DNA of 64,000 nucleotides, taken from a virus. Shown here in pieces: positions 19,393-64,000 of this stretch. The translations under genes and the position numbers were made by a program. The stretch is taken from IMG/VR virus record IMGVR_UViG_3300027797_000001, positions 1-64,000 of that record. One strand, given 5' to 3'. The number at the start of each line of letters is the position of its first letter. Within the stretch, counting starts at the first letter, position 1. Under the pieces are notes generated by a model. The model worked only from the letters and a program-made list of their open reading frames with translations, did not search any database and had not been told where the DNA came from.

Positions 19393-19779
19393 ATGAAAAA
19401 GATAACTAAAAAAATGCCTAAAGCACAAGCAGGCAAAATTGTAAAAGCAGTTAAAGCTGTGAAACCTGCAACAACTATTGCAAAAGATCTTCCAATAGTT
19501 TTAAACAGAATGAATAGAGCTGAATTAAAAAATATTCTAAAAGGAATAGAAAAAGATCTTCCAAAACCTAAAGGTATGGCTAAAGGTGGACCAATTAAAA
19601 AACTTAAAAAAGCTGAATTGGGAATGGCAACAGATGACTCATGTTGGCCAGGAAAACCAGGATGTGGTAAAACTAAAACAATAAGAGGTGCTAGAACTAA
19701 AAGAGTTAAAACAGGACCCTCTCCTGGTAGAACTTGGATGTCAAGTATGGCAAAAGGTGGAATGACAAAGAAAAAATAA
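19393..19779 (+). CDS. Lys-rich protein with MAKGG motifs
   Basis: AQAG, MAKGG x2, AELG. Confidence 0.8.
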   Translation: MKKITKKMPKAQAGKIVKAVKAVKPATTIAKDLPIVLNRMNRAELKNILKGIEKDLPKPKGMAKGGPIKKLKKAELGMATDDSCWPGKPGCGKTKTIRGARTKRVKTGPSPGRTWMSSMAKGGMTKKK

Positions 19780-19801
19780 ATTGTCCTTCTCTAAGTAATG
19801 T

Positions 19802-19836
19802 AATCCAGGTATATACTATGCCTGGATTTTTTATTT
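19802..19836 (+). terminator. intrinsic terminator
   Basis: AATCCAGGTAT/ATGCCTGGATT stem followed by TTTT. Confidence 0.85.
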
Positions 19837-19899
19837 AAACTTGTTTGATTTAAACTTATTTTATATATATTTGTGTAAACTAATATAAATTAATATCTT

Positions 19900-20202: not shown

Positions 20203-20204
20203 TC

Positions 20205-24757: not shown

Positions 24758-24759
24758 CT

Positions 24760-27504: not shown

Positions 27505-27597
27505 GCTATTTAGCTATATAGTGAGAAAAAAGTTTTTTAGCATTATAAATTTTTGAAGTTTATTTCTTATATTAAATTATAAACAAAACCAACACAT

Positions 27598-28842: not shown

Positions 28843-28870
28843 TTAAGTAACAAATAAAACAAATATAAAA

Positions 28871-30490: not shown

Positions 30491-30503
30491 TAGATCAGAG
30501 TAT

Positions 30504-31604: not shown

Positions 31605-32105
31605 ATGAAAACAAAAAAAATGCAAGATGGTGGACCTATTGATGCAATGCGTAAACAGATGGGACAAAAAAAACCATCTTTAAAGAAAACACTTAAATAT
31701 GTGAAAAAACATGGTTCAGGTTATAATCCACCAAGTGAAGCACCTAAAATGCAAGATGGTGGACGCACAATTAGTGAAAAAGCTGCTGCAAGAAAAGTTG
31801 CAAAAGGTAAAGGAACAATTAGTAAATCATACCCATCTGGACCAGAAGAAAAAGGATCATATATTGGATATAGCAAAGAAGCTAAAAAATCTGATAGTCC
31901 TTTTAAATCTATGAAAGATTCTAAACCTGCAAGACCAATTATGAAGACAGGTGGTATGGTTAATTCTAATGCAAAAGTTTCTGCATTAAAAGTTGCTGGT
32001 ACTAAAGGTACAAAGTCTGGAGTTAACTCTAAAGTCTCTGCATCTAAAGTAGCTAAAGGGCGTTCAGGTGGTGTATCTAAAGCTCCTAAAAAAGCAAACC
32101 CATAA
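31605..32105 (+). CDS. Lys-rich protein with MxxGG motifs
   Basis: MQDGG x2, MKTGG. Confidence 0.8.
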   Translation: MKTKKMQDGGPIDAMRKQMGQKKPSLKKTLKYVKKHGSGYNPPSEAPKMQDGGRTISEKAAARKVAKGKGTISKSYPSGPEEKGSYIGYSKEAKKSDSPFKSMKDSKPARPIMKTGGMVNSNAKVSALKVAGTKGTKSGVNSKVSASKVAKGRSGGVSKAPKKANP

Positions 32106-32443: not shown

Positions 32444-32445
32444 TT

Positions 32446-32688: not shown

Positions 32689-32690
32689 TC

Positions 32691-32951
32691 ATGGCACAGG
32701 CAAAAGCAAAGAAAGTAAAAGTTACTGCCGGTGGAGAAAAACATGTAGTCTATAAAAAGACTACAAAAAAAGGTGAAGGAAAGGTTGGCAATATAATGGT
32801 TAACCATCCCACAAAAGATAAAGGTCAGTGGGATACAATAGATCTTACTGCAAAAGGTAGAGCTAAGACAATTAAACAAGGAGTGGCAGCTACAAAGAAA
32901 TGGCATAAGGACAACCCTTATCCTAAAAATAAAAAGAATGGCAAAAAGTAA
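32691..32951 (+). CDS. small basic protein
   Basis: 86 aa, Lys-rich. Confidence 0.8.
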   Translation: MAQAKAKKVKVTAGGEKHVVYKKTTKKGEGKVGNIMVNHPTKDKGQWDTIDLTAKGRAKTIKQGVAATKKWHKDNPYPKNKKNGKK

Positions 32952-33288
32952 AGCACAACAAGCAGCAATTGCTATCTCTATGAAGAAAGCTGGTAAAACT
33001 CCTAAGATGAAATCTGGTGGTTCTACTCCTGCTTGGACACGTAAAGAAGGTAAGAATCCAGAAGGAGGTCTTAATGCTAAAGGAGTAGCTTCTTATAGAG
33101 CAGCTAATCCTGGAAGTAAACTTCAGACAGCTGTAACTACTAAGCCGTCAAAGCTTAAGCCTGGTAGCAAAGATGCAAAGAGACGTAAAAGTTTCTGTGC
33201 TAGAATGTCTGGAATGCCTGGACCAATGAAAGATGAAAAAGGAAGACCAACTAGAAAAGCTCTTTCTTTAAGAAAATGGAATTGTTAA
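32938..33288 (+). CDS. small basic phage protein (DUF6321-like)
   Basis: MKSGG then PAWTRKEGKNPEGGLN.KG...RRKSFCARM...LRKWNC. Confidence 0.8.
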   Translation: MAKSKAQQAAIAISMKKAGKTPKMKSGGSTPAWTRKEGKNPEGGLNAKGVASYRAANPGSKLQTAVTTKPSKLKPGSKDAKRRKSFCARMSGMPGPMKDEKGRPTRKALSLRKWNC

Positions 33289-33304: not shown

Positions 33305-34159
33305 ATGAAAACTTGTAAAGTAGGTTGTGGTAAGATGAAATCTGGGGGCACAATCAAGAAAGTAAAAAAGATGGCTAAAGGTGGTGCCGCAGACTATAAT
33401 TATGGTATTCCATTAAATGGTTTACCAATGCGCCCTACTAATGGTAACACAGATATTTCTAAAAATCAAATGGGAACTAACCCTACCATGAAAAAAGGTG
33501 GCACCATGAAAAAAATGCAAAATGGTGGTCCTAATAACCTAAAAAAAAAAATAGGAAGATTAGAAAATAAAAAAGAAAGACTTGCAAATAAACGTTCAAG
33601 AGCCAGCTCTATAAGTAGGAACTTTCAAGGGGATCCTGATACTTTAAGTAAAGTTGTTGATAATGCTCTTCAGAAAAGAGCTATTAATGTAATGGAAAAA
33701 GTTTCAAATAAACGAGAAATGATTAATAAAAAAATTAAAGAACTAAAATCTTCAAATGCTTCATCAAGTATGAAAAAAATGGCAAAAGGTGGTGCTAAGA
33801 AAACTTTAATTAAAGCTCAAGCTGGACGTTCAATAGTCAATCCTAAAGAAATGTCTGATAAAATCAGAAGAGGACCAGGAATGCCACCTCCGACACCATT
33901 TGGTAAAGTTGATTCAGGTCCAATGGTAAATACAAGAGTTGATTCAGGTCCAACGATGAACCCATATTCTTCTACAAAAGAAGCTAAACTTCCTATTTCT
34001 GGACCTTCTTTTAAGAAGGGTGGTTCTACTTCCTTTGGTATGTTATCAGTTAAAGCTGGTGTAGATAAAAATCCTAAAGCAACTGCAGCAGATAGAATTG
34101 CTGGTGCAAAGATGAGTAAGAAACAAATGGGTGGTATGACAAAATCTAAAAAGAAGTAA
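33305..34159 (+). CDS. Lys-rich multi-xxGG-motif protein
   Basis: MKSGG, MAKGG, MKKGG, MQNGG, MAKGG, FKKGG, KQMGG. Confidence 0.8.
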   Translation: MKTCKVGCGKMKSGGTIKKVKKMAKGGAADYNYGIPLNGLPMRPTNGNTDISKNQMGTNPTMKKGGTMKKMQNGGPNNLKKKIGRLENKKERLANKRSRASSISRNFQGDPDTLSKVVDNALQKRAINVMEKVSNKREMINKKIKELKSSNASSSMKKMAKGGAKKTLIKAQAGRSIVNPKEMSDKIRRGPGMPPPTPFGKVDSGPMVNTRVDSGPTMNPYSSTKEAKLPISGPSFKKGGSTSFGMLSVKAGVDKNPKATAADRIAGAKMSKKQMGGMTKSKKK

Positions 34160-34203: not shown

Positions 34204-34488
34204 ATGGCAACTAAGAAGGCTACTGCAAAATTTGGTGCATCTGTAAAAGTGCAAAGAGGATATCCTGGAAAAATTAGATCTGCTAAAGATCAGGGATATA
34301 CTCCTGTGGGAGAAAGAGAACCTGACAGAACTAAGTTTAAAAAAGGTGGATCAACTGATAAAAAGTGGATTCAAAAAGCAATTAATCCTGCACATAAAGG
34401 ATATTGTACTCCTATGACTAAAGCTACTTGCACTCCTAAAAGAAAAGCTCTTGCTAAGACCTTAAAGAAAATTGCTAAAAATAAATAG
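34204..34488 (+). CDS. small basic protein
   Basis: FKKGG then KKWIQKAINPAHKG...LAKTLKK. Confidence 0.8.
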   Translation: MATKKATAKFGASVKVQRGYPGKIRSAKDQGYTPVGEREPDRTKFKKGGSTDKKWIQKAINPAHKGYCTPMTKATCTPKRKALAKTLKKIAKNK

Positions 34489-44083: not shown

Positions 44084-45141
44084 TGGATTTTAATTATACT
44101 CTTAAATACAGAACATTTGATCAATTGTTAGAAGATGTAACAGTTGACTTAAGTACTTTTGCTCTAGAAAACATGATAGAGCCTCAACAACTTATTAAAG
44201 TTGCTAAAAGAGTTAATTATGATTTGGGCTTAAGATTGAATCAGCAAAAAGAAATTATATTAGAAGTATGTCATGGAAGAGTAAAGCTTCCTGATGATTT
44301 TTATACATTTAATTTTGCATTCATCTGTGGAAACTTTGTACAGCAACTTGGTTATGGAGCACACGCTTCAGGAACTCATATTGTAGAAGTACCTTATCAA
44401 GAAGTACCAGCTAATGTAGATATATGCGCTCCGCCAACTGTAAACTGTAGAACATGTAATTCTAATCCATGTAATCAAACTGCAGGGTGTGATCTTAATT
44501 TCCCCATAGTAGATCCAATACCTACAGAGTATGATCCATTAAATCCTTATGGTAATACATGTATTGCTCCAAGAGTATTTATGAACTGTAAAGGTGAGAA
44601 GTGGGAACTTGTTCAAGTTTTAAATAACTCAGGTGCAACAAGAGTTTATACTGAACTTATTCCATTAAGAATGAAAGCCAGTCAAGAAATAGAATGTGAC
44701 TGTCCAAATCTTTATTGGAATACTGCAAACCAAGGATGGATTAAAGGAGGATTTTTATTTACAACATTTGAAACTGGAAAAGTATATTTAAACTATCAGG
44801 GACAATTGGAAGATGATAATGGAAACCTATTAGTTCCAGATCATGATCTTTTAAATGACTATTATGAATATGCATTTAAATCAAGAATTTTTGAAAACCT
44901 ATATCTTAATGGAGAGGATGTAGCACAAAGAATGCAGCTTATAGAACAAAGACTTAAGACAGCAAGAAATAATGCATTGAGCCTTGTAAACACTCCAAAC
45001 TTTAGAGAGCTTGAAGATATGTGGTGGACAAATAGAAAAGCCATGTATGGTAAATACTATTCTATGTTCCAAAGTCATTCACCTAATCAAGCATATCTTA
45101 GAAATAGAAATTATACTGGAAGCGCAAATAGAATAGTATAA
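44083..45141 (+). CDS. tail ring protein
   Basis: KLPDDF, G.VYLNY.G...D..G.L.VPD motifs. Confidence 0.7.
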   Translation: MDFNYTLKYRTFDQLLEDVTVDLSTFALENMIEPQQLIKVAKRVNYDLGLRLNQQKEIILEVCHGRVKLPDDFYTFNFAFICGNFVQQLGYGAHASGTHIVEVPYQEVPANVDICAPPTVNCRTCNSNPCNQTAGCDLNFPIVDPIPTEYDPLNPYGNTCIAPRVFMNCKGEKWELVQVLNNSGATRVYTELIPLRMKASQEIECDCPNLYWNTANQGWIKGGFLFTTFETGKVYLNYQGQLEDDNGNLLVPDHDLLNDYYEYAFKSRIFENLYLNGEDVAQRMQLIEQRLKTARNNALSLVNTPNFRELEDMWWTNRKAMYGKYYSMFQSHSPNQAYLRNRNYTGSANRIV

Positions 45142-50653: not shown

Positions 50654-53600
50654 TGTTTAATAAGAAGCTCCTTTCAAGTATAGATTTAGGGAAGTATAAA
50701 AAAAAGAATCCCTATAAGAAAGATATGATTTTAGATCCTATGGGTCAATGGAAACATCCTGGGAAAAATACTAGAATACCCTCTGACCGGATTACAATGA
50801 AAGGAGTTAATTATCCTGTCTTGGGTGTATCAAATACTGGACAAAAACAAATGATGCAACCCGGAAGAGAATATAATTTTCCTGGAGCAGATTATGTTGA
50901 TGAATATCCACAGATGAAAAACGGTGGTTTACCTAAAGCTCAAAAAGGTGCAGCTACATACCAAGATAGTTTAGATGTATATAATAATGCTTTAAAACTA
51001 AAAGCTTTTTATGATTCAAAAAAACAATTATATAATATATCTACTAGACCATGGTATGGTACAAGCAATTTAAAAAAGGAAGAAAAAGAAACATATGATT
51101 ATGATAAAAATCCGGCTAACAATCCGGATGTAAAAACTTGGACACCTCAACAAAAAAGAAATTTTCAAAAAACAAAAGATTTAATTAAAGCAAATAAAGA
51201 TCCAAACATTGCTTATATTACAGATCTAATAACAGGTGCTTTAGATCCAGATGCTCCTGCTTCAAGATATGATAATAGAATTAAACCTCAATCAGAAATA
51301 GCATATTCGCCTTATAAAGCTCAATATTCAAAAACAGAAGACTCACTTTATGACAAACTTCAGAAAAACTATGATGGTATGAGTAGTTATGGTGATCCAA
51401 GATTTCCTACCTTAACTCCAAGTAAAAAAGATCTTTTAGATTATGCTAAAAAACTTGGTTATAGTCAAAAAGATGCTATAAGTCTTTTATATAAACTTAA
51501 AAGAGAAAATCTTGCTATGGCAAACACACCTGGAGTTAATACTATCTTACCATATTATGATCCTCTTGCAGTAAAACCTGGGAAACTCCTTACAGATGAT
51601 GAAATAAGAATTAGAGTTAAGAAATATGGTACAACTGGTATTCCTCAAAATAGATTAGACAAACTTGGTTTAAATAGTTCAAACCCACCAAAAAGTTCAA
51701 ACCCACCGAAAAAAAGTACATCTTCTACAGTTACTAAATCACCATGTTCAAATCCAACAACTACTGTTATAAATAATGTACCAGATAAAATTCCTTTTGG
51801 AAAAAAGTTAGTTGGTACAGATGAAGAAACATTACCAGTAACTGGGAAAAAATGTGAGTATGTTAAAACTATAAATCCAATTTATGAGGATGTTACAATA
51901 GATCCTATTAAACCCCCAGCAATTGCATTAAGAGTAGACAATGGTATTTTACCACCATTGCAACAATCAACTTATGTTCCACAAGAACCTATTGAAGCTC
52001 CACAATATGCATTAGGCCCTTATACTGCTGATAGATTACGTTTATCAGTAACACCTGGAAAAACAAAAAAAGTAACAAAACGTGGAAGATTGTTTGATGG
52101 TAAAGGTCAAGGATATAAACATACAGAATATAAATCAACTAAAGATTTGGAGTTTGGAAAAAAAGAAGTTACTAGATTAATACCAAGAATTGTTCAGAAG
52201 ATTACTGGTTATGATCCAGAATACTTTGAAGGTTCTTATGATGAAGAAGGTAACTATATTCCTGGAGAATTAGACTTTGGTAATGAGGTTGGTGGTAGAA
52301 TGGAATTTAGAGGAGCTGCATCTTTACAAGATTTAATAAATCAACAGAAGTATGCAAAAGACTGGGAAGAGTATGAAAGAAAGATTGATGAGAGAGAAGA
52401 ACAATCAAAGAAAAAACAAGAAGAGGGTAGAGCATTTAAAAAAGGTGGAACAAAGAAAAGAATATATAACCCTAATGCAAAGTATTATGCGGATGGTGGA
52501 GAAAATTTACAAGAAGAATGTCCACCATATCACTATTGGAATGGAGAAACTTGTGTTCCAGTTAGTAGAGAGCTTGCTCCTCTTGATCCACAATACTTAT
52601 CAGAAAATCCAGATGTTGCAACAAACATGCAAATTGAACCAGAAGTAAGTGTTAGTCCATTAGGTTCGGATTTTTCCAAGGCAAAGTCATGGATTGATAA
52701 ATGGCATGATTCTCCAATGCATGATAAAATGCTTATGAAATCATTACAGGGTAATAAAAAACTTTTTAAAGAATATAAGGATAAAAGAAAAAAAAATATA
52801 CAAACTATTCCAGCACTAAATATTAGTTTAGATAAAAGTGATCCTTTATATAAAGAAATAAAAGATTATTATGGGTTTGCTCCATGGGGAGCATCGGATA
52901 GTAATACAGGTGCTGTTTCAATATATAATTCTCATCCTGGAAATAAACAAATGTTAATTCATGAGGTTACTCATTCTTCTGATAGACCAGATGATAAATT
53001 AGGTAGACTTATTCCACCTAATGACCAATTAACAATACAATATAGAATCCCATTAAATTGGAAATATAGTCAATATGGTAAAGATATGATGAAAGAATAT
53101 AAAGAAAAAGGGTGGCGGTTAGATGATGAATATATGGGTGAAGAAGAAATACCAAGAGATATATATGAACAACAACAATTTAATGATTGGAATAAATATT
53201 TATTAAGTGACCAAGGAACTGAGGTTAGAGCAAGATTAAGTGAGATAAGACAGGATGCACAAGAACAAAATATTTATGACCCTTTTAATAAAAAAATAAC
53301 AAGAAGGCAATTTAAAAATTTAAAAAATATAAAATATCCTGATTCATTAGATGACCTTAAAAAAACTTTTTCTGATAAAGATATAAAGTGGATGTTAAAT
53401 AACATTTCTAAAAACAATAATGAAACTGAAGATGCTATTCAATATGGTAAAAAAGGTGGGGCAAAGAAAAAATACACAAGTGATATAATTAATAGTACTA
53501 ATTATCTTTTTGCGGAACATCCTTTATTTAAAAAGAAGAAACAATCTAAGAAAAGAATATATAACCCTAATGCAAAGTATTATCAATTAGGTGGATTAAC

Positions 53601-56463
53601 ACGATTTGTACCACAAGCTGGTAGAATGTTTGCTTTACCACCTATTACTAATACAATTGCAAATACTGCACCAGGTATTTTAAATTCTATAAAGACTATA
53701 TCGCAAAAACTTCCTACTAATTTATTAGATGAAGGTGCAAGAGATTTATTACATTATCCTAGTTTTGATGTTACACTTGGAGAATCAAATTTAACAGGAG
53801 TTGATGCTGCAAAGTATTTGGGAGACTTTGGCTTTAAACCATATTCAGAAGGTTGGACAGCTCTAAGTGACATGAAAAATGCATTTGAAGGAAAACAATG
53901 GAATCCTAGTAAAGAAGATTATTATACTCTTGATGAAATTTATAATTTAATAAATAAGCAAACAAATTATTTAAATGATCTTGCTAAGTTTAATGAAACA
54001 AATCCTGATGAATTAGGTGAGTATGGAAATTTATTAAGATGGATGCAAAATGATTTTAGTAGAGATGAATTATTTTCATTGTTATTTCCAAATTCTAGTA
54101 GACCAAATTTTAAAGAAAAATTTTATCGCCCAGAACATATAAATTTATTAAAACAAACTACACCCAATCCTGAAACTGGTATAAATTTATATGATAATTT
54201 AATTAAAAATACCAATTTTGGAGATAAAGGTTTAGTAGATAAGTATACATTAAGAAGATCAATAACAGAACCTAATACTGAAATATTACCGGGATCTGAA
54301 GATCTAATGTTATATAGACAAAGATATGAACCCTACAGAGGTTTAGATGCTGGTAATTTAAGTGAACGTAAAGATGTAATAGAGTTTCTTAAAGATCATG
54401 ATGGCATTTTAGGTTTTGAATTTAAAGATCTTAATAATGAATATTCCAATAATTTAAATTATTGGAAAGAACAAATATTTGAAAAGTTTGATAATCGACA
54501 ATATAAAAAATTTCAAAAGAAGTTTAAAGAACAATCTAAACCTGGAACTAGCTCTAAACTTAAAGGATTAGATGCTTATAATCAAATAATTAATAGAACT
54601 GGTTCTAGAAATAAATACGGAGGAGAACTACCTAAAGGTAAATACGGATACTCTGTTGGTAATCTTATAAGAAAACAATTTGGTGGTTTAGGTAGAGATC
54701 AAAGTTTATCAGTTTCACCATATGATCTTGATACTTACATTGGAGCTTCTGGAAATCAAATATATAATCCAGGATATAGTCTTACATATAATAAGCCAAA
54801 CCTTTTTAAAAAATTAGATGTAGTTGGAACTCCTTTTCAAGTATCAATAGGAAGACCTTATAATACTGATCCAAATAGTTTAACTAATCAATCTTTAAAT
54901 TTTGGAACATCATATGACTATGAATATATGGATCCAGGAGTACAACAAGGTCCACAACAAGAAGCTATAAATAATGCAGCTGCACAATATTTAGGAAAGG
55001 ATGTTCAAGATTTAAACCAATCTGATTTAAATAAATTTTCAGCATTTAAATCATTAGGGGAAATTAAAAATGCTTATGCTCCAGGAAAACCAATTAATTT
55101 ATCTACAAAACTTTCATTTTTAGGTAAAGCATTTAGTGACCAACCTGTTAGAGGTTTTGGATCAATATCTGGTGGTTATAATCCTGAAGCAGGTTTTTGG
55201 GCAGGAGCTGATCTTGGAGGTTTTGGAGTAATCTCAAATAAAAAACCAAAAACATATTTTGATAGAGGTTTATCTAGAAAAGGAGATTGGGCGGTTATTC
55301 CTAGTCTTTCTTTATTCTCTCCAGCAATTAGACAAAAAGGAATTGCAAATCTAGAACAATCTGCAGAGTATAAACGCTTATTAGAAAAAGATATACAAGA
55401 GGGTACTGATTCAGCACAAAATTATTATGATAATCAATTAGATGATCAGGGTAAGTCAACAATGACATTTAATGCAAGACCGGAAATTAAAGCGCAACTT
55501 AAACCATTTAAAAAGTTTCCCGGAATCTTAGAAGGGGTAGTTGGAGCTAATATAGATTTTATAAGTGGTGGTAAGGATTCTATGGATAAAATTACAACTA
55601 ATATAAACCCATACGGCAAAATATCATATGCTGTTTCTATTCAAGATGAGTTAGATAGAATGAAACGTAAGATGAAAAATGTAGAATTTCCTGATAAAAA
55701 ACACTATGAAGATTACGTAGAAGAATATGAAAATCAAACTACAGAAGAAACTCCTACAGAAACTGATAATCAAATTAATCCACCGGAGGTTGAATTAAAT
55801 TTTGATGGTCAAGGAGTAGGAAAAGCAGACTGCCCTAAAGGCTATGAAAGACCATGTGAAAAATGCAGATGTCAAAAAATAAAAATGCCTCAAATGTATA
55901 CAGACAAAAGAGGTAAACAGTTATTTGGCAATGAGCCTATTAGATTTCAAGATGGTGGAGAACAGGATGCAATGAATGCTATGATGAAAGCAAGACTTGC
56001 TTATGCTAATATGTTTGGTAATCCCTCAGCACAAAGAATGATTAATCTTCCAGATCAACCTTATGAATTTGATAATGGGAATACAGGCACACACTACATG
56101 GCAAGTATGGATAACTATGCTGTACCTCAAATTCAAGATGAGAATGGAGTATTACAGATTGGAAACTATGGTCCAGAATCTACTGAGGCAATGAGATTTG
56201 ACTCAGATGAAGATGCTAATTATTTTGCAGAAAACTATAAAGATGTTTCACCAGGATTTATGGATCTAGAACTTGATGATAATGAGATAGAAGAATACAG
56301 AAAAGGTGGTTATATAATAGAAGATATTTCTGTGCCTTCACTAACTAGAATGCAGCCTGTTGGTAAATATCAAGATGGTGGAGAATATCAATTGGGTGAT
56401 GAAGTAGATGAAGCTACTATGAAACAATTAAAAAAATTAGGTTTTACATTTGAACAAATTTAG
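50653..56463 (+). CDS. giant modular cargo/ejection-type protein with a zincin (HEVTH) module
   Basis: 1936 aa; about 10 xxGG motifs separating unrelated segments; LIHEVTH...TEVRARL. Confidence 0.8.
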   Translation: MFNKKLLSSIDLGKYKKKNPYKKDMILDPMGQWKHPGKNTRIPSDRITMKGVNYPVLGVSNTGQKQMMQPGREYNFPGADYVDEYPQMKNGGLPKAQKGAATYQDSLDVYNNALKLKAFYDSKKQLYNISTRPWYGTSNLKKEEKETYDYDKNPANNPDVKTWTPQQKRNFQKTKDLIKANKDPNIAYITDLITGALDPDAPASRYDNRIKPQSEIAYSPYKAQYSKTEDSLYDKLQKNYDGMSSYGDPRFPTLTPSKKDLLDYAKKLGYSQKDAISLLYKLKRENLAMANTPGVNTILPYYDPLAVKPGKLLTDDEIRIRVKKYGTTGIPQNRLDKLGLNSSNPPKSSNPPKKSTSSTVTKSPCSNPTTTVINNVPDKIPFGKKLVGTDEETLPVTGKKCEYVKTINPIYEDVTIDPIKPPAIALRVDNGILPPLQQSTYVPQEPIEAPQYALGPYTADRLRLSVTPGKTKKVTKRGRLFDGKGQGYKHTEYKSTKDLEFGKKEVTRLIPRIVQKITGYDPEYFEGSYDEEGNYIPGELDFGNEVGGRMEFRGAASLQDLINQQKYAKDWEEYERKIDEREEQSKKKQEEGRAFKKGGTKKRIYNPNAKYYADGGENLQEECPPYHYWNGETCVPVSRELAPLDPQYLSENPDVATNMQIEPEVSVSPLGSDFSKAKSWIDKWHDSPMHDKMLMKSLQGNKKLFKEYKDKRKKNIQTIPALNISLDKSDPLYKEIKDYYGFAPWGASDSNTGAVSIYNSHPGNKQMLIHEVTHSSDRPDDKLGRLIPPNDQLTIQYRIPLNWKYSQYGKDMMKEYKEKGWRLDDEYMGEEEIPRDIYEQQQFNDWNKYLLSDQGTEVRARLSEIRQDAQEQNIYDPFNKKITRRQFKNLKNIKYPDSLDDLKKTFSDKDIKWMLNNISKNNNETEDAIQYGKKGGAKKKYTSDIINSTNYLFAEHPLFKKKKQSKKRIYNPNAKYYQLGGLTRFVPQAGRMFALPPITNTIANTAPGILNSIKTISQKLPTNLLDEGARDLLHYPSFDVTLGESNLTGVDAAKYLGDFGFKPYSEGWTALSDMKNAFEGKQWNPSKEDYYTLDEIYNLINKQTNYLNDLAKFNETNPDELGEYGNLLRWMQNDFSRDELFSLLFPNSSRPNFKEKFYRPEHINLLKQTTPNPETGINLYDNLIKNTNFGDKGLVDKYTLRRSITEPNTEILPGSEDLMLYRQRYEPYRGLDAGNLSERKDVIEFLKDHDGILGFEFKDLNNEYSNNLNYWKEQIFEKFDNRQYKKFQKKFKEQSKPGTSSKLKGLDAYNQIINRTGSRNKYGGELPKGKYGYSVGNLIRKQFGGLGRDQSLSVSPYDLDTYIGASGNQIYNPGYSLTYNKPNLFKKLDVVGTPFQVSIGRPYNTDPNSLTNQSLNFGTSYDYEYMDPGVQQGPQQEAINNAAAQYLGKDVQDLNQSDLNKFSAFKSLGEIKNAYAPGKPINLSTKLSFLGKAFSDQPVRGFGSISGGYNPEAGFWAGADLGGFGVISNKKPKTYFDRGLSRKGDWAVIPSLSLFSPAIRQKGIANLEQSAEYKRLLEKDIQEGTDSAQNYYDNQLDDQGKSTMTFNARPEIKAQLKPFKKFPGILEGVVGANIDFISGGKDSMDKITTNINPYGKISYAVSIQDELDRMKRKMKNVEFPDKKHYEDYVEEYENQTTEETPTETDNQINPPEVELNFDGQGVGKADCPKGYERPCEKCRCQKIKMPQMYTDKRGKQLFGNEPIRFQDGGEQDAMNAMMKARLAYANMFGNPSAQRMINLPDQPYEFDNGNTGTHYMASMDNYAVPQIQDENGVLQIGNYGPESTEAMRFDSDEDANYFAENYKDVSPGFMDLELDDNEIEEYRKGGYIIEDISVPSLTRMQPVGKYQDGGEYQLGDEVDEATMKQLKKLGFTFEQI
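52453..52488 (+). repeat. 36-bp perfect direct repeat copy 1 (KKRIYNPNAKYY)
   Basis: AAGAAAAGAATATATAACCCTAATGCAAAGTATTAT; copy 2 at 53548-53583. Confidence 0.9.
53548..53583 (+). repeat. 36-bp perfect direct repeat copy 2
   Basis: Identical to 52453-52488. Confidence 0.9.
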
Positions 56464-59400
56464 TGATGGCAAAGTATAGAATTACAAGTTTACCGCAGTC
56501 TTTACCTAAAGCACAAAAAGGATTATTTAATAAAAGAAATAAAATATCTGTTAGAAACGGTGAAGTTAAATTGTTTCCAAATTTATTTGGTGATAAAAAA
56601 AGAAACAATATAGATACTCAAGATCAATCAGATGATACACAATATAACTGGTCTGGCACAACTCCAGAATTAATGCAACCTGATCAAGAGTCTTTTGAAT
56701 TAAAACCTACATATGCACCAACACCAGAGTTTACTCAAGCAGATGTTAATTTAAGTTCTACTCTTAGTAAAATACAAGAGGAGAGAGACAGATTAGCTCA
56801 AGAAAAAGAAAACAAGGATTGGGAAGAGATGATGAAAAAAAGAGATGAGAAATTTAAAACTTCTAAAAAATATGATAAAATAGAACCTTTGCTTACAATT
56901 GATTCTGAAGGATATGCAGATGAGGATCTTGCTTATTTTCAAGAGGCTGGATATTTTCCAGTAAAAGATTCAAAAACAAATAAAATAAATTTATATCCAT
57001 CAAATGAAATAAATTCAAAAATTATTAATAATGGTTTAAGAACAGATGAGATTGTTAAAAAACTTGGAATAGGTGATGCTGAATCTGTGAAGTCTGCTTT
57101 TGGAGATTTAATGACTGCTGCAGATCAACAGTATTCGGCTACTGTTCAAAACAAATTATTACAAAAATCACTAGATGAAGGTATTAGTTTAGAAGACGCA
57201 GTTAAAAAATTATCTGGTAAACTTGGAACTGAAAAAGGTCTTCAAAAATATGTTGCGCCTACTACTGATTTAATAAATAATTATATTGATGAAATTAAAA
57301 AAAATGTAAACCAACCTGCGGAGAAAGAACTTCAGTCAATGTACTATGATAATAGAAATCCTAATCAAGGTTATTCTCCAAAGATTGATTATAATTCATA
57401 TGATCCAGGGTTAAAATATAACACGGATTATTATAATACTACAAATAATTGGGGACAATTTCTTAAAGACTATTCTGATTATAATAAAGAGTATGATAAA
57501 GAATATGCAGATTCATTTTATAATAAACAAAATCAAACTGCTGATAAATTAAATTTACCTGTGTCAGATAGAACAGGAAATTTAAAAAATCAACAAGATG
57601 TGATTAATCAAAATATATCATTAACTAAACAAGTTGGAGATGTTTCTACAGAAGCAGGAAATAAAACAATAAATAAGAAGTATATAGAACAACTACAGGC
57701 AGACATGGCAAGAGTTTCTGATCCTTTAGTTAAATATGAACTAAGTAAAAAACTTGATGCAGTAAAAAATAATCCAGAAGCTTTTTCTAAACTCTTAAAA
57801 GGTTTTGAATCTGGAGAAGTCTTTACAAAAGAAGATGAAGATAATATCAATGCTTTAACTTTTAGTATCCTTCAAAAAGAATCAAATCCAGATACTATAA
57901 AAGCTGGTGTAGATAGACCTAAACTTACAACATCAGATAAAGTATTTGATGTATTAACTAATCCATTTGACGCATTTAAATATTCAAACCAAGGAGGTTT
58001 AGATAATATGTGGACTAGCGGTATGGGTTATAATGAAAGAAAACTTTTAGAAAGAGCTAATCCAGAATTAAATCTTGGAACACAAGATAATCTAGTTGGT
58101 AATGCTTTGAATACATGGAATCCAATGAGATTTGCAAGAGATGTAGATTCTGATCTAGATAGAGAAGACTATGCTTCTGCTGGTTTAGAGGCACTTGAGT
58201 TTGCTACTCCTGCAATGTTTTCAAAAGCTGCAAGAGCTGGTAGATTAGCTAGAGACGCAAGTAAGTTTTTTCCAACTGGTTCAATCACACCAGGATTAAA
58301 AGGATTTACCGGATCTGCTTTTGAATCATTAAATCCCTATTTTGCATATGAGGCAATAAGACCAGGGGGAGAATTAAATAGATCATACGATTTACTTAAA
58401 GAAGGAAATATTAAAGAAGGACTTCAAGAAGGTGCTTTTGGTCTATTAAATCTTTTACCTGCAGCTGGTACTTTTAAAAGTTTAAAAAGTGCTGAAAACA
58501 TAGGTGGTGCTAAACCATTTGTATCACAACAATTAAGTTTTAAGAAAGGAGGAGAGTTACCTACTTATCAAGGGCCAATAAGATCAATTGTAAAAAGTAT
58601 TCCTTCTAAACTTGGTAATTTAGCAATGAAGACTGGAATAAAAACATTGCAACTTCCCGGAGTTAAACCTTTTTTTAGAAGTAACTATAATCCAATTAGT
58701 TATCCAATTAGTTATCCAATAAAACTTTTAGGTGAAAAAATAGCTAGACAATCTCTTAGTCCAAGTAGAAATAAAGAACAAGTTATTGCTGCACTTACTA
58801 AAAAAGCAGCCCCAGAAGAAAACCTTTATTTTGGTAATGTAACTGCTGTGGATCCAGAATATGGTTATGGTAAAAGAGATTTAATTGCTAATTATTTTAG
58901 AGGTATAGATACTGGTTTTAAACCAATTGACTATGATATTTATTCAGATCCTGGTTTAAAAAAATATATAGATAGATATGGACCTTTAAAAACATATGAA
59001 CTTAATTCATCTGTTAAACATGGTCAACCTTTAGACATTGCTGATTTTACTAGGCTGCTAAATATAGATGATACTAAATTAAGTAATTTTGATCAAGATC
59101 TTTATGAAGATGAAGTTTTTCAAAATATGCCTGGTTTAGAAGATTATTACTATAATGAGTATATGAATAATCTTCCTGGAACTAGTACTCCTAGTCCATA
59201 TAAAGCACAAAGACAATACTATAAAAAAATGTTACATCAATATTTTGATAAACGCGGTATAGAAGTTCTCCCTCTAGTTGTTGATCCAGATTTGAATACA
59301 TTAGGTAATGTTAAAAATTATTTAAGCCGTAATCCCGCTATATCATATGATGATCTTGCTGGTCATATGGGTTATTTAAAAAGATTGCCAAACAAAGAAG

Positions 59401-59654
59401 ATTTTGAATTTACTACAAGAGATATATGGAAATTTACACCTGATGACTATCATTCTAAATGGGCAGGATCTTCAAATAAAGATGAACTGTTTAAACAATT
59501 ACAAGTTGAGGCTATGGATGCATTTGGAAAACCATTTGTTTTAACCCAAACAAATCCAATGAAATTTAAAAACGGTGGTTCAATGGAATTAGAATTAACA
59601 CCAAAACAAATTAAAGAGTATATAAAAGCTGGATATATCATTGAAGATATCTAA
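56463..59654 (+). CDS. large putative cargo/ejection protein
   Basis: 1063 aa; AQKG, FKKGG, FKNGG; C-terminal MELELT..QIKEY.KAGYIIEDI. Confidence 0.8.
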   Translation: MMAKYRITSLPQSLPKAQKGLFNKRNKISVRNGEVKLFPNLFGDKKRNNIDTQDQSDDTQYNWSGTTPELMQPDQESFELKPTYAPTPEFTQADVNLSSTLSKIQEERDRLAQEKENKDWEEMMKKRDEKFKTSKKYDKIEPLLTIDSEGYADEDLAYFQEAGYFPVKDSKTNKINLYPSNEINSKIINNGLRTDEIVKKLGIGDAESVKSAFGDLMTAADQQYSATVQNKLLQKSLDEGISLEDAVKKLSGKLGTEKGLQKYVAPTTDLINNYIDEIKKNVNQPAEKELQSMYYDNRNPNQGYSPKIDYNSYDPGLKYNTDYYNTTNNWGQFLKDYSDYNKEYDKEYADSFYNKQNQTADKLNLPVSDRTGNLKNQQDVINQNISLTKQVGDVSTEAGNKTINKKYIEQLQADMARVSDPLVKYELSKKLDAVKNNPEAFSKLLKGFESGEVFTKEDEDNINALTFSILQKESNPDTIKAGVDRPKLTTSDKVFDVLTNPFDAFKYSNQGGLDNMWTSGMGYNERKLLERANPELNLGTQDNLVGNALNTWNPMRFARDVDSDLDREDYASAGLEALEFATPAMFSKAARAGRLARDASKFFPTGSITPGLKGFTGSAFESLNPYFAYEAIRPGGELNRSYDLLKEGNIKEGLQEGAFGLLNLLPAAGTFKSLKSAENIGGAKPFVSQQLSFKKGGELPTYQGPIRSIVKSIPSKLGNLAMKTGIKTLQLPGVKPFFRSNYNPISYPISYPIKLLGEKIARQSLSPSRNKEQVIAALTKKAAPEENLYFGNVTAVDPEYGYGKRDLIANYFRGIDTGFKPIDYDIYSDPGLKKYIDRYGPLKTYELNSSVKHGQPLDIADFTRLLNIDDTKLSNFDQDLYEDEVFQNMPGLEDYYYNEYMNNLPGTSTPSPYKAQRQYYKKMLHQYFDKRGIEVLPLVVDPDLNTLGNVKNYLSRNPAISYDDLAGHMGYLKRLPNKEDFEFTTRDIWKFTPDDYHSKWAGSSNKDELFKQLQVEAMDAFGKPFVLTQTNPMKFKNGGSMELELTPKQIKEYIKAGYIIEDI

Positions 59655-59712
59655 ACCTTTGAAGTTTACTCATTAAATTTATTTTTAGTATATTTAATAT
59701 ATAACGTGCACA

Positions 59713-62700
59713 ATGACAAAAAAGAAAGTAAGAATATACAAGGCTCCAGATGGTAAAGGTCAGTATATAAATAAAACTGCAAAGTTCTTAAAGAAAGCTG
59801 CATTTGGTGGTCAATCAGATACTCCGCAAGAGGATATGTATTCTCAATTGGCACAAGCTTCATATATGTCTATTAAAAAGGGACAAAGTCCAAAGGCAGT
59901 ATATGACTTTTTAATTAATAATAAAATTAGTAAAGATGTTGCTGAGAAAATTGTGACAAGTGTTATACAGTTCATGATGTCAAAAGGTGAATTAGAACAA
60001 GAAGACCTTGACGAAGATCAGCAAAAAGAGCAACAGATGCAAGCTCAAATGCAACAACAGCAACAAGAAAAAGAACAAATGGCTTCTGAACAAGATGCTG
60101 CTAATGAAGCACAGATGGACATGTACAACAAACAAAGTATGGATGTTGCTAATGACATGTCTCAGTATGATCAAGAAGCAGAAGCTAACTTAGATACAGA
60201 AGATATATTAGGTTTTCAGGCTGGTGGTCAAATGACTACAGATGATTTATTGTCAGAACTTAATAAGCATGATAATGATATTAATTTCCAAGATTTAGAA
60301 TCATTAATTCAGTCTACTCCTGGAACACAAAGTGCATCATTCCCAGGGATTGAAGAATACTACTTACCTTATATTCCACTTTATAGTGAAAGCAATGAGA
60401 TTCCAATTTATAATCCAATACAAAGTGATAATCAATATAAGTTTGGGGGAAAAACAAAAAAGAAATTTATAGGATCAGTACTAGAACTTTTAAAGAAAGA
60501 AGAGGGTGGCGAGGATGAAGTAATTAATAATACTACAGCTACTCCTAAAGATGATCTTACAAATACTGTTAAGAGAAAACAAGATTCATTTGTATCAGCA
60601 TTAAGTGACGAAGCTAAAAAAATAAAAATAGAAGAGTATTATAATCAAATTAAAAATACAAATGATCCAGATACTCAAGAAATTTTAGGTGGAGGCCCTG
60701 ATCAAATGAAAAGGGGTGGCAGAACTAAAAGAAAAGATAATAGACTGCTTAGAAAATTAAATAGAATACTAGGACAAAATGATATGTATGGTATGCAAGG
60801 GTATATGCCATATAATTATTTTAATAAGCGTAGTGGAGATTTTGCAAATCAAAGATTTGATACTTTAGACTATCCATCAATTGCAGAATACTATAAAGCA
60901 TTGTTAGAGAAAATGCCAGTGTTAAATCAAATGTCAAGAGTATTGCCTCAAGTAGATGTTTATGACACAGGTTTATTTGGTAGACCAAAGAAGTATAAGA
61001 TTTCATATAACATTCAACCAGTAGATAAATCTGCAGAAAGACAAGCTATGGAAGCTGTTATTAAGAACAATACTGGATCATCTTTCCCAATGTTATATCC
61101 AAATCCTGGTTATGATGGTTCTCCTGCTCCAGCTGGTACAATGTTAGATGTAGTTAATGACCGCTCTATAGCTCCTATACAATATGATGCATCTGTAAAA
61201 CCTATGGTTCCTACAGGTCCAATGGCTTTTCAGTTTGGAGGTTCAGCTATTTTTGATCCTTCTGCAAGTACATTAGCAAAATATATCTATGGTGGCAATG
61301 ATTTTCCAGAAGATTCTAAGAATGTAAATGATCCATACTTTTCAGATACTACACCATATCCACAAATGCAAAATGGCGGAGATCCCACTGAATATACACA
61401 TTATACTCATGGAGCTAATGATGTATTTCATGATAACATGAATATGATAAATCAAGCTAAGGATGGTTTAGAAACTGGTGGTGATGAATATGCTCTTGAT
61501 TATATAAGACAACTTGCTGGTCAAATGAAGCAGTATAATAAAGCTTCTAGAAAATTAGGAAGGCAGGCAAGAAGAATGACTGGAAATACCATGTTAGATT
61601 ATTTAATTCCTATCAATAGACCTTTTGAGTATGCAGGAAGTTATGGTCAACAAAGGGGAATGCCATTTGATTATGAGACCGGTGAAGAATACACCGGTGA
61701 AATAGACCCATCTAATTTTGTAGCAAGGGATAATTATAAAATAGGAATGTTTGGTAAACCTAAAAAATTTATAGATTATTATTCAGTAGGTAATGAAGGA
61801 CTTAATGTTCCAGATGATTTTTCAGAAATTGAACCATATACAAAGTCAAAACAAAAAGCTCCTGCTCAACAAGATGTTTATAATGAACAAGAAGAGGAAG
61901 ACATTTCTTTTCGTCAAGCAAGAAGGAATGATGGCGTAAGTAATATTAGAGGTGCTTTTGCAAGAATGTTTCCTGAAAGTTCAGGTAGAGAAGATAGAGA
62001 AAGAATGTTTCCTATGCTCAGAGCTCAAGACTCAGATAGAAGTGAAGACAGAAGATTGTTTCCAATGATGAGGGCGGATAAAAAACAAGAAGGTGGAGAA
62101 CCAAACCAGGATGATTATTATAATGATTTATTTTCTAAATTAAACTATAGTAATACCTATAGCAATTATTACAATGAATTAGAATTTAGAAAAGGTGGAA
62201 GAGTATTAAGAAAAGCATTTGCGGGTTTAGAAAATACACCTGTTTCATATAATGACAATCCAGTTACTTCACAAAATATTATTAGTCAAAATACTCCAGA
62301 TCCTATGGAGCAAATGACAGCATTTCAAGGACCTATTATAGAAGATAGTGACTTTAATTTTCCAACTGATCTTCCTGGACCAGTTTCTACAACTAAACCT
62401 TATGTTGAACCTGCAGAAGATGATTGGTCAGGTCCTCAAATGAGTAATCCAGACATAGATTATCCTGCTGGTCCTGAGAAACTTAAAAATAAATTAGTAG
62501 GTGTTAAGAGAAAAAGAAAAGATATGTTTAATATAGATCCAGAAGCAGGTGTTAATGCATTTAATGCTGGAGCTAGAGGAGTTCTTGGTGGTATTGATAG
62601 AATGAGGAATAAGAAACAAGAAGCAAACATGTATGCTAAAAACTTTGACCCTACTAAAATTTATGGACAAAAATCAAGAATAGATAAAGGTGACTATGAT

Positions 62701-63069
62701 GTAAATAAAGGATTGTATAGAGTAAATCAAATGGGTGCTGATAGATTAGGCCGCTCTAAAAAGTATGGAGGTTATATGCAACCAGGAGGATCAGTAGATC
62801 AACAAATGTATTACCCTGAAGACAATATGGTTTATCCTCCAGGAGATAGTCAGTATCCAATGATTCCTTTGAATCAAGATATTATGGATATGATGTATAA
62901 CCAATACTATTCTGATCCTAACTTTGCACCTTATATGGAAGACCCATATATGGAAGAAACTCCAGAGCAAATGGACTACAGAATGGTAAAAGAAGGTGGA
63001 GAAACCTATATGTCAGATGAACAAATAAATGCCTTCTTAGCTGAAGGAGGAGAAATTGAATATTTATAA
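59713..63069 (+). CDS. large low-complexity cargo protein with many xxGG motifs
   Basis: 1118 aa; at least 12 xxGG motifs; Gln/Met/acidic segments. Confidence 0.8.
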   Translation: MTKKKVRIYKAPDGKGQYINKTAKFLKKAAFGGQSDTPQEDMYSQLAQASYMSIKKGQSPKAVYDFLINNKISKDVAEKIVTSVIQFMMSKGELEQEDLDEDQQKEQQMQAQMQQQQQEKEQMASEQDAANEAQMDMYNKQSMDVANDMSQYDQEAEANLDTEDILGFQAGGQMTTDDLLSELNKHDNDINFQDLESLIQSTPGTQSASFPGIEEYYLPYIPLYSESNEIPIYNPIQSDNQYKFGGKTKKKFIGSVLELLKKEEGGEDEVINNTTATPKDDLTNTVKRKQDSFVSALSDEAKKIKIEEYYNQIKNTNDPDTQEILGGGPDQMKRGGRTKRKDNRLLRKLNRILGQNDMYGMQGYMPYNYFNKRSGDFANQRFDTLDYPSIAEYYKALLEKMPVLNQMSRVLPQVDVYDTGLFGRPKKYKISYNIQPVDKSAERQAMEAVIKNNTGSSFPMLYPNPGYDGSPAPAGTMLDVVNDRSIAPIQYDASVKPMVPTGPMAFQFGGSAIFDPSASTLAKYIYGGNDFPEDSKNVNDPYFSDTTPYPQMQNGGDPTEYTHYTHGANDVFHDNMNMINQAKDGLETGGDEYALDYIRQLAGQMKQYNKASRKLGRQARRMTGNTMLDYLIPINRPFEYAGSYGQQRGMPFDYETGEEYTGEIDPSNFVARDNYKIGMFGKPKKFIDYYSVGNEGLNVPDDFSEIEPYTKSKQKAPAQQDVYNEQEEEDISFRQARRNDGVSNIRGAFARMFPESSGREDRERMFPMLRAQDSDRSEDRRLFPMMRADKKQEGGEPNQDDYYNDLFSKLNYSNTYSNYYNELEFRKGGRVLRKAFAGLENTPVSYNDNPVTSQNIISQNTPDPMEQMTAFQGPIIEDSDFNFPTDLPGPVSTTKPYVEPAEDDWSGPQMSNPDIDYPAGPEKLKNKLVGVKRKRKDMFNIDPEAGVNAFNAGARGVLGGIDRMRNKKQEANMYAKNFDPTKIYGQKSRIDKGDYDVNKGLYRVNQMGADRLGRSKKYGGYMQPGGSVDQQMYYPEDNMVYPPGDSQYPMIPLNQDIMDMMYNQYYSDPNFAPYMEDPYMEETPEQMDYRMVKEGGETYMSDEQINAFLAEGGEIEYL

Positions 63070-63078
63070 TTTTGTATT

Positions 63079-64000
63079 ATGTATCATAGAGTAAGAATTA
63101 AAAAATTGCCACAGGCAAGAACAGGTTACCAAGTACAAGGTTCACTAGCTAATGATGTACCAGCTTTTGGTGGAGCAGATTATAATGCATATATAGGAAA
63201 ACCAAATCTTAGACAAAGTAAATATATTACAGCTGTACCAAGAGATGAAGCTAACTTAGAAGCAGAAGGTGGAGAAACTGTATATGGTGACATCAATGGA
63301 GATGGTTTTCCAGAACACAAAGTTATAAAAGGACCAAGACACTCAGCAGGTGGTGTACCATTATCATTACCAGATGATACATTTATTTTTAGTGATACTA
63401 AATCAATGAAGATAAATGATCCTAATGTTTTACAAATGTTTGGTAAAGCACCTAAGAAAGGAAAAGGTCAACATGGCTTTACTCCAGCAGATCTTGCTAA
63501 GCAATATGATATAGATAAGTATAGAAAAATATTACAAGATCCTGACTCAGATCATATTGCTAGAAAAACTGCTGAACTAATGATCCGTAACTATAATATG
63601 AAGTTAGGAGCTTTAGCATTAGCACAAGAAGCTAAAAAAGGATTTCCTCAAGGTATACCAGTAGTAGCTAAACCTTACATGGAAGCTATGGGTCTTACAG
63701 AAGATAAACTTCTACCAGCTGAATATAGAACATTGTCAGCTCCACAAGAAGAAGAAGAAATGCCAGAAGATCAAATGCAAGATCCTTCACAACAATATGC
63801 TTCTGATGATTATGATGTAGAGAATACACCATATGATACAGAAGAAGAAATGGGAATGCAACCTGGTATGGGATTAGATCAAGCAGCCATGGAAGGGCAA
63901 ATGCAAATGCCACCTATGGCTATGTATGGTATGGAGATGGGAGGTTATGATATGCCTTTTGCTGCATATGGTATGCCTATGGGAGCTAATTCTAGTAACT
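63079..64000 (+). CDS. cargo protein with EAEGGE/GPxHxxGG domain (partial, runs off window; not in ORF track)
   Basis: MYHRVRIKKLPQARTG...ANLEAEGGETV...IKGPRHSAGGVPL.LP..TFIFSD; appears open to window end. Confidence 0.85.
   Translation, partial: MYHRVRIKKLPQARTGYQVQGSLANDVPAFGGADYNAYIGKPNLRQSKYITAVPRDEANLEAEGGETVYGDINGDGFPEHKVIKGPRHSAGGVPLSLPDDTFIFSDTKSMKINDPNVLQMFGKAPKKGKGQHGFTPADLAKQYDIDKYRKILQDPDSDHIARKTAELMIRNYNMKLGALALAQEAKKGFPQGIPVVAKPYMEAMGLTEDKLLPAEYRTLSAPQEEEEMPEDQMQDPSQQYASDDYDVENTPYDTEEEMGMQPGMGLDQAAMEGQMQMPPMAMYGMEMGGYDMPFAAYGMPMGANSSN

Follow-up and report, generated by a model that had tools for sequence, protein, structure and literature searches.

A conserved Gly-Gly tag at module junctions of basic and cargo proteins in a crAss-like phage: a possible uncut joint

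Adenain, the adenovirus protease, cuts basic core precursors at (M/I/L)xGG-x and (M/I/L)xGx-G sites, and pS273R of African swine fever virus (ASFV) recognises GG-x sites. In phage T4, a single N-terminal capsid-targeting peptide of about 10 amino acids (aa) is removed by the prohead protease, encapsulin cargo-loading peptides are present as one terminal copy, and class II bacteriocins have one N-terminal LSxxELxxIxGG leader together with a C39 peptidase-ATP-binding cassette (ABC) exporter. Polyvalent proteins of phages and conjugative elements (Pfam ART-PolyVal, PF18760) were reportedly described in 2017 by Iyer, Burroughs, Anand, de Souza and Aravind; as far as we know, that account includes no common junction peptide. 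Here we analyse the first 64 kb (64,000 nucleotides, "the window") of the 114,922-bp genome of a crAss-like phage, IMG/VR record IMGVR_UViG_3300027797_000001, whose proteins carry many copies of a short peptide in which a bulky residue stands three places before a Gly-Gly pair ([MFY]xxGG, "the tag"). An earlier note on this DNA had interpreted the peptide as a capsid-targeting or double-glycine cleavage signal that turns its carriers into polyproteins of packaged effectors. We found the tag to be real, specific to proteins that probably lie inside the virion and that form two sets (small basic proteins encoded beside the capsid gene, and those whose genes separate the muzzle from the RNA polymerase giants), and conserved at module boundaries, whereas the targeting and the cleavage or polyprotein roles were not shown. 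A literature search returned no published account of the motif, and for C1, a cargo protein of Bacteroides phage crAss001, neither cleavage nor the motif has been described (Bayfield et al. 2023, PMC10172136).

The tag is far more frequent than expected from protein composition. The figure of roughly 35-40 copies given earlier holds, as [MFYK]xxGG occurs 37 times in nine open reading frames (ORFs, named by their start position) and 41 times over all plus-strand ORFs. The nine are ORFs 19393 (2 copies), 31605 (3), 32938 (1), 33305 (7), 34204 (1), 50653 (9), 56463 (2), 59713 (11) and the window part of 63079 (1); the AQAG/AQKG variants were located in ORFs 19393 (aa 10), 33305 (aa 170), 50653 (aa 95) and 56463 (aa 16). 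Against 2000 shuffles of each protein separately, the narrower [MFY]xxGG was seen 36 times in all 61 ORFs versus 10.9 expected, with 32 versus 4.0 in the nine ORFs and 4 versus 6.9 in the remaining ones. For single proteins, the counts in ORFs 33305 (6 versus 0.34), 50653 (8 versus 1.28) and 59713 (8 versus 1.03) were reached in none of the 2000 shuffles, and those in ORFs 31605 (3 versus 0.18, P=0.001) and 19393 (2 versus 0.08, P=0.0025) only rarely. These per-protein shuffles rule out a composition artefact. The near-absence of the tag from enzymes and tail proteins was likewise confirmed: the large terminase has no copy, the portal 1, the major capsid protein 1, the muzzle 1 in 1836 aa and the collagen-like fibre none, all at or below expectation, and four giant proteins encoded downstream of the window have none in 9,536 residues.

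This signal lies in the peptide and not in the DNA. The glycine codons of the tag are GGT-GGA/GGT, the same as in Gly-Gly pairs outside the motif, GGAGG does not occur, and Y, F or A can stand in for M; we therefore rejected a DNA-level cause such as Shine-Dalgarno-like GGAGG sites with internal starts, and the tag is under selection as protein. From 664 unique Gly-Gly contexts in the basic ORFs of 80 relatives we derived the consensus h-x-K-[M/Y/A/F]-[K/Q]-x-G-G-[S/A/T/M]-[V/T/K]-K, beside which there is a variant form, [L/I/M]-x-K-A-Q-x-G, with the second glycine missing. In 342 unique contexts from relatives, position -3 is M, Y or A, not L, I or V. The residue after Gly-Gly in these contexts is preferentially S (88 seen, 24.9 expected), A (65, 32.4), T (50, 24.3) or M (44, 13.5), Lys is strongly avoided (8, 64.2), and Pro stays at background without depletion (14, 16.3). 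Tags often lie near termini, being found in the first 13 residues of 46 of 164 tagged basic ORFs and in the last 12 of 32. Nevertheless, chains almost never stop at Gly-Gly itself: a single protein does so among 389 basic ORFs, and one among 152 cargo homologues. Tails of 4-15 residues beyond the last Gly-Gly were counted for 46 of 184 basic ORFs and for 99 of the 152 cargo homologues, and such tails are conserved (GGEIEYL, GGFVYxDxxYPF).

The tag is the most conserved feature of the small basic proteins and of the swappable cargo proteins. Relatives retain it in the corresponding genes, also where the proteins share just 25-40% identity. Relatives were gathered via the capsid protein and a genome search, while a locus scan queried with ORF 59713 returned none. 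In three near-complete relatives with capsid proteins 91% identical, the cargo proteins are only 25-60% identical to those of the window and differ in length, and enrichment is limited to three or four post-muzzle proteins (e.g., 12 tags versus 1.5 expected). Among 29 sequences of the ORF 59713 family, with a mean column identity of 23%, Gly-Gly pairs account for 16 of the 53 columns conserved at 90% or more; conservation reaches 46% for glycines of these pairs, 16% for single glycines and 3% for other residues, and the -3 residue varies within M/F/Y/A/L only. In 60 homologues of ORF 63079, the tag at aa 288 is retained in 56 of 60 sequences and that at aa 346 in 39 of 42, with hundreds of variable-insert alignment columns between them.

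The earlier observation that tags sit at junctions has statistical support. Among the cargo proteins of four related genomes, 27 of 108 BLAST match ends fall within 8 aa of a tag, as opposed to 7.8 for random tag positions (P<0.0005). For example, a 144-residue module with 77% identity between cargo proteins of related genomes spans from tag to tag, and a 55-aa junction unit is duplicated in one relative (G001). Module boundaries, gene fusions and gene splits coincide with the tag. Pfam domain edges do not always adjoin it and can be 7 to 504 aa away.

The first tagged set consists of small basic proteins, all encoded on the plus strand:
19393..19779, plus strand: small basic protein, 128 aa; MAKGG at aa 62 and 119, KAQAG at aa 10
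31605..32105, plus strand: small basic disordered protein, 166 aa; MQDGG at aa 6 and 49, MKTGG at aa 113
32938..33288, plus strand: DUF6321 protein, 116 aa (PF19846, E=1.1e-24); MKSGG at aa 24 abuts the conserved domain (STPAWTRKEGKN...)
33305..34159, plus strand: basic low-complexity protein, 284 aa; 7 tags, KAQAG at aa 170
34204..34488, plus strand: small basic protein, 94 aa; FKKGG at aa 45 abuts a conserved Cys-containing C-terminal domain (alignment of 14 relatives)

In ORFs 32938 and 34204, the conserved domain starts directly after Gly-Gly and the upstream part is hypervariable or another module. Similarly, the unit of ORF 31605 from MKTGG to the C-terminus is kept in 44 relatives and its N-terminal half is hypervariable; the ESM Atlas gave only viral, disordered matches for this protein (model predicted local distance difference test, pLDDT, 0.45) and no functional lead. 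In four relatives, the module encoded by ORF 32691 is joined to DUF6321 via PKM-xxGG, while the DUF6321 gene starts at the tag point both in relatives L003, L007 and L051 and in two unrelated marine phages, one a pelagiphage and the other a Methylophilales phage. Stand-alone DUF6321 genes of close relatives carry no tag. DUF5872 and DUF6321, found here in small basic proteins (32105-33288), occur widely, with 546 phage records from marine cyanophages, pelagiphages and Methylophilales phages (loci L086, L087 and L088). They are fused in one 455-aa protein of Synechococcus phage S-CAM8, and in pelagiphage HTVC104P a 43-aa basic ORF with MKYGG adjoins the DUF6321 gene.

The second set lies between the muzzle (45143) and giants 69309, 77028 and 87559, which is the gene position of C1-type proteins. 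The tagged proteins and their upstream neighbours are:
43418..45141, plus strand: tail ring proteins R2 (43418-44083; PF25702, E=2.4e-20) and R1 (44083-45141; PF24228, E=2.1e-9)
45143..50653, plus strand: muzzle protein (PF25731 crAss_MUZ, E=4.5e-18), at the start of the cargo gene block; untagged ([MFY]xxGG 1 versus 1.17 expected)
50653..56463, plus strand: first cargo protein, 1936 aa, polyvalent; 8 [MFY]xxGG at aa 88, 595, 612, 977, 1636, 1765, 1882 and 1906
52453..53583, plus strand: zincin-like cassette of 360 residues within ORF 50653 (aa 617-976), HEVTH at aa 770, between two perfect 36-bp repeats
56463..59654, plus strand: cargo protein, 1063 aa; FKKGG at aa 693, FKNGG at aa 1035, KAQKG at aa 16; C-terminal unit FKNGG-SMELELTPKQIKEYIKAGYIIEDI
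59713..63069, plus strand: cargo protein, 1118 aa, mostly disordered; 8 [MFY]xxGG and 18 Gly-Gly pairs; C-terminal unit ...EGGETYMSDEQINAFLAEGGEIEYL
63079..64000, plus strand: start of a 975-aa cargo protein ending at genome position 66006; tags at aa 285, 343 and, C-terminally, 953 and 958

The 108 homologues of the first cargo protein (P0153-P0260; 1084-3304 aa) hold 617 tags versus 114 expected and carry varying Amidase_2, Phage_lysozyme, SET, ART-PolyVal, LysM, CBM_14 and DUF5872 modules, as polyvalent proteins do; the copy in the window shows the HExxH cassette only, without a Pfam match. Such variation is seen among relatives G004 and G002 and records P0187, P0211 and P0216: the SET (lysine methyltransferase-like) module was noted by eye at the N-terminus in G004 and G002 and, in P0187, lies just past the first tag, and in other relatives the first cargo protein has Amidase_2, lysozyme or ART-PolyVal modules instead. 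In the window copy, the 36-bp direct repeats at 52453-52488 and 53548-53583 are identical, 1095 bp apart and in frame, encode KKRIYNPNAKYY, and each lead into a tag (YADGG, YQLGG), which points to a recent insertion or duplication at a junction unit. That the cassette is a private insertion, as three relatives without a match had suggested, was dropped given HExxH modules in 65 of the 108 homologues.

Further downstream, the most conserved cargo segment is the N-terminal part, about 205 aa, of ORF 63079, whose first 100 residues have 1757 homologues and many invariant positions, including GPRHxxGGVPLxLPDDxFIFSD. This domain, which the earlier note had put forward for co-folding with tag peptides, is recognisable neither as a protease nor as a receptor, and AlphaFold2 could not fold it alone (pLDDT about 30 for these invariant 100 residues). 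This suggests that the segment becomes ordered only on a partner, so that judging from the model it probably folds only there; the portal as that partner would be a guess. Homology of ORF 63079 to crAss001 gp45 was also considered and found no support from BLASTP, phmmer, Foldseek or VIA-align, the N-terminal 100 aa being modelled without confidence; there is only a by-eye likeness of EGG ... FSD. The same 975-aa protein has four CxC pairs (PCPC...CPCP...CPCG...CKPC; aa 649-690, genome 65020-65150) kept in the family consensus. The ends of ORFs 56463 and 59713 are formed by a conserved helix-GG-acidic strand unit (...KEYIKAGYIIEDI, ...AFLAEGGEIEYL), and the next cargo proteins, ORFs 59713 and 63079, open with a basic strand and a KAQxG-type turn (MTKKKVRIYKAPDGKG..., MYHRVRIKKLPQARTG...). 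These end and start units are conserved in relatives and, going by their sequences, the C-end of one cargo protein could pair head to tail with the N-start of the next.

How, then, should the tag be understood? The reading we favour, tentatively and at somewhat less than an even chance, is that the chain stays uncut and the tag serves as a helix-stop, hinge or docking joint, which would also render modules exchangeable. In such a joint, the bulky residue three places before Gly-Gly would close the last turn of a short helix as a helix-capping box, Gly-Gly would end the helix and allow the chain to turn, and the following residue would open the next strand or helix. Along disordered internal proteins, these joints would part short docking elements from exchangeable modules; the chain would be stored extended, its short helices and strands anchoring it to portal, tail barrel or adjacent cargo, and would then thread out via the tail. 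As the same joint would close every module, we propose that insertion, loss, fusion or splitting there would be harmless. The Schellman motif is said by Aurora and Rose (1998) to have an apolar residue at C3, Gly at C' and an apolar or small residue at C''. By the rules of helix capping, S/T serve as N-cap and Pro is tolerated at the helix start. The tag statistics (apolar -3, Gly-Gly, S/T after it, Pro tolerated) fit a C-cap followed by an N-cap.

Structure prediction gives a compatible picture. With family alignments, AlphaFold2 predicts ORF 59713 to be 82% disordered (mean pLDDT 39), with four helices ending 0-1 residues before Gly-Gly (H21-30/GG32, H247-264/GG265, H520-526/GG527 and H1102-1110/GG1112) and two opening just past it (GG246/H247, GG336/H339); given the low confidence of these models, the helix limits can be read as indications only, which weakens the case. 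In the ORF 63079 model, every tag lies in disordered stretches (220-357 or 930-975) beside folded parts. Tags combine enrichment and conserved position with placement at module boundaries and in predicted disordered linkers beside short helices; the capping geometry, the docking role and a chain that stays uncut are inferred. The rarity of chain ends at Gly-Gly and the conserved tails after it support the uncut joint, as do the conserved Gly-Gly columns of the ORF 59713 family and the ordered segments of crAss001 C1 that open shortly past an aromatic-Gly-Gly. Further support comes from the clustered BLAST ends, the 36-bp repeats, the variable inserts and the PKM-xxGG fusions, which indicate module exchange at the joint. 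On the other hand, several points count against it. No binding partner for the joint was identified, and seven copies in a 284-aa disordered basic protein are less well explained by a hinge. Small residues after Gly-Gly, and the domains and stand-alone genes starting there, would be equally compatible with cutting; the cargo often holds zincin-like modules; and, as a weak point, full-length C1 does not appear at its expected size in crAss001 gel peak lists.

Several of these points lead to an alternative that we regard as unlikely but serious, namely that tags are sites where a packaged protease cuts basic proteins and polyvalent cargo, at Gly-Gly or directly beside it, either while the head matures or once injection has taken place, the cutter being a zincin-like HExxH module, an unrecognised phage enzyme or a host enzyme. 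This would account for the domains of ORFs 32938 and 34204 that open right after Gly-Gly beneath hypervariable N-terminal extensions, for DUF6321 genes starting at that point elsewhere, for fused and split genes meeting at the tag, and for the preference for small residues and the exclusion of Lys after it. HExxH modules are also characteristic of the first cargo protein, occurring in 65 of 108 homologues versus 1.7 proteins expected (100 sites of at least five sequence types, one being HExSHSxDRP as in the window copy), and a [WY]HEA[WF]H module is common to genome ORF 77028, relatives G002 and G004, and crAss001 gp47 (BLASTP E=3.7e-4). The latter module, at residue 966 of the protein encoded at genome 77028-87554 beyond the window (L082:16575-17477) and at residue 2157 of gp47, is by its sequence a candidate order-wide, virion-packaged metallopeptidase; it is not named in the comparative-genomics paper PMC7886860. 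However, Pro after Gly-Gly is not depleted, proteins do not end at Gly-Gly and their tails are conserved beyond it, and the KAQxG variant has no second glycine. Cleavage into polyproteins, as proposed earlier, is not shown, and domain starts, gene splits and HExxH modules favour processing. Moreover, none of the HExxH modules is recognised by a Pfam, NCBIfam or PDB family and their catalysis is only predicted; 43 of the 108 homologues lack such a module, and none was found in the post-muzzle cargo of G001 and G002. Scans of about 70 ORFs or ORF segments against Pfam, PHROGs and NCBIfam found no known protease family except one metallopeptidase-like DUF2201 gene. This gene, a DUF2201_N putative metallopeptidase/VWA protein of the early region (genome 101495-103854, minus strand; L084), gave the only protease-like Pfam match in the scans, and an ORF beside it has a weak, below-threshold AAA_5 match (E=0.009). 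Two other candidates were discarded: no prohead protease was found in the head module, where ORF 27598 is scaffold-like, and the "MPP" of Yutin et al. is a metallophosphatase, not a metallopeptidase.

Published gel data bear on the same question. We compared the matrix-assisted laser desorption/ionization peak lists of crAss001 bands 1-10 (PMC6235969 source data; bands 11-13 left out) with theoretical tryptic masses. The bands were assigned cleanly to gp44; gp47 and gp50; gp49; gp20; gp26 and gp22; gp22 and gp25; gp25; gp23, with gp47/gp50 and gp49 migrating at full size. The 70-100 kDa bands correspond to gp20, gp22, gp23, gp25 and gp26 (12-25 matches versus 0.5-4.4 for shuffled decoys), while C1, at 90.8 kDa, stays at decoy level in them (4, 4, 5, 1 and 1 matches versus 4.2, 4.5, 3.7, 1.0 and 1.3). 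Its absence would agree with cutting; this evidence is weak and merely negative, and may reflect poor staining or ionisation. In a specific version that we likewise hold to be unlikely, and slightly less likely than the general one, the tag would be a processing code of crassviruses and their aquatic relatives: packaged zincin-like modules (the order-wide [WY]HEA[WF]H module in the gp47-like giant, together with the first-cargo HExxH cassettes) would cut core and cargo proteins at tags, in the head or after injection, and so free effectors and DNA-binding peptides, much as adenovirus matures its core proteins.

It is improbable, in our view, that the tag is an address bound by a repeated procapsid receptor (scaffold, inner capsid face or portal) that loads the head. 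Its restriction to proteins expected inside the particle, with shell, portal, terminase and fibres lacking enrichment, would suit an address, as would its frequent terminal position in basic ORFs (46 and 32 of 164), and multiple copies per protein would supply avidity. Yet giants 69309, 77028 and 87559 are untagged although their crAss001 counterparts gp47, gp49 and gp50 are found in virions (PMC10172136), and the stand-alone DUF6321 genes of close relatives are untagged too; the tag is therefore not a general ticket into the head, and the capsid-targeting role suggested earlier is not shown. Many tags are also internal, at module joints, twelve portal subunits are too few for the tag copy number, and no receptor was found. 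Still less probable, to the point of being a long shot, is a tag without a specific partner, either a condensate sticker (aromatic or Met residues plus Gly in Lys/Gln-rich disordered chains) or a linker kept for module recombination. The proteins are indeed disordered and of low complexity, and the identical 36-bp DNA at two junctions of ORF 50653, like the duplicated 55-aa unit of G001, speaks for recombination or duplication at the joint. Against this, the fixed spacing between bulky residue and Gly-Gly, the class-conserved changes at -3 and the ordinary glycine codons indicate selection on the peptide instead of on DNA or composition, and positions are kept across proteins only 25% identical.

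The surrounding genome is that of a crAss-like phage. Pfam and PHROGs identified the large terminase (22556; PHROG E=1.9e-60), portal (24760; E=8.4e-94) and major capsid protein (28871; E=2.8e-30), and with the muzzle, ring proteins R1 and R2 and crAss-type portal, terminase and capsid protein the Crassvirales-type virion gene set is present. R1 and R2 are possible docking surfaces. One further feature lies in the head module:
ORF 27598, between the portal and capsid genes: scaffold-like protein, acidic, helical, without Cys and without a family match

Past the window, the remainder of ORF 63079 is followed by four giants of 1080, 2571, 3508 and 2377 aa; genome ORFs 69309, 77028 and 87559 match crAss001 gp47, gp50 and gp49, which are RNA polymerase-associated virion proteins. 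A ferredoxin-like auxiliary gene (12128-12760; phrog_3704, E=4.3e-64) heads the plus-strand block. By portal, the nearest isolates are remote: Leptolyngbya phage Lbo-JY46 is 33% identical, with tags nearly absent and the basic-protein array absent, and Cellulophaga phages phi17:2 and phi4:1 are 27% identical. In phi17:2, FQAGG, YQNGG, FQIGG and FQSGG are present in gp41. Given these distant isolates and at least 598 IMG/VR relatives, with capsid proteins 88-98% identical in the best 80, we place the phage in an abundant, uncultured aquatic crAss-like lineage.

Few viruses of guts and waters are as abundant as crAss-like phages, which pack several megadaltons of protein and expel it via the tail. 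As a single conserved joint peptide by which the cargo other than the polymerases would be organised, the tag offers a direct experimental handle, and it could be used to locate cargo genes and the borders of their modules in phages not yet cultured. An uncut joint would account for free module swapping alongside storage and ejection. Should packaged zincins instead read the tag as a cutting code, this would bring to light a system of maturation or effector release that has so far gone unrecognised.

Comparison with known systems shows partial likeness in each case. The adenain and ASFV sites share with the tag a hydrophobic residue followed by Gly-Gly, small residues after it, and basic, DNA-associated internal proteins. 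For a cut after Gly-Gly, however, the bulky residue of the tag would be at P5, not P4, it is M/Y/F/A with L/I/V not common, and Pro is tolerated after Gly-Gly; no Pfam or PHROG match to a clan CE protease was found in about 70 ORFs or segments, many of which have no match at all. Tags differ from bacteriocin leaders in being multiple and internal, with the hydrophobic register at -5/-8 and not -4/-7, and family scans of the same ORFs or segments detected no C39 or ABC gene. The T4 and encapsulin signals are also short peptides marking proteins bound for the inside of an HK97-fold shell, but tags are many, internal as well as C-terminal, no prohead protease was found, and the giants with packaged crAss001 homologues are untagged. 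By its sequence statistics the tag fits the hydrophobic C3, Gly C' and apolar or small C'' of the Schellman C-cap, and the four predicted ORF 59713 helices end at Gly-Gly in the low-confidence model; this is a general structural rule and not a family, and it leaves the M/F/Y/A restriction and Lys/Gln at -2 unexplained. Homologues of ORF 50653 resemble polyvalent proteins as large predicted virion-borne proteins with swappable effector modules. As for crAss001 C1 (gp45; PDB 7QOG chain M and related entries), its bulky-residue register is looser and an array of small basic tagged proteins is lacking; gp45 gave no significant match to the cargo of the window by BLASTP (best E=0.78), phmmer against PDB (none) or PF25725 crAss_CARG1 (none at E<=0.01). 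Nonetheless, C1 is likewise encoded right after the muzzle, largely unstructured and stored in the particle (PMC10172136). It has 21 Gly-Gly pairs, many beside an aromatic residue and one of them in FDTGG within residues 12-37, and its ordered, docked segments begin 0-4 residues past an aromatic-Gly-Gly, with segment 214-245 following AYGG at 207-210 and segment 425-552 beginning with AFGG.

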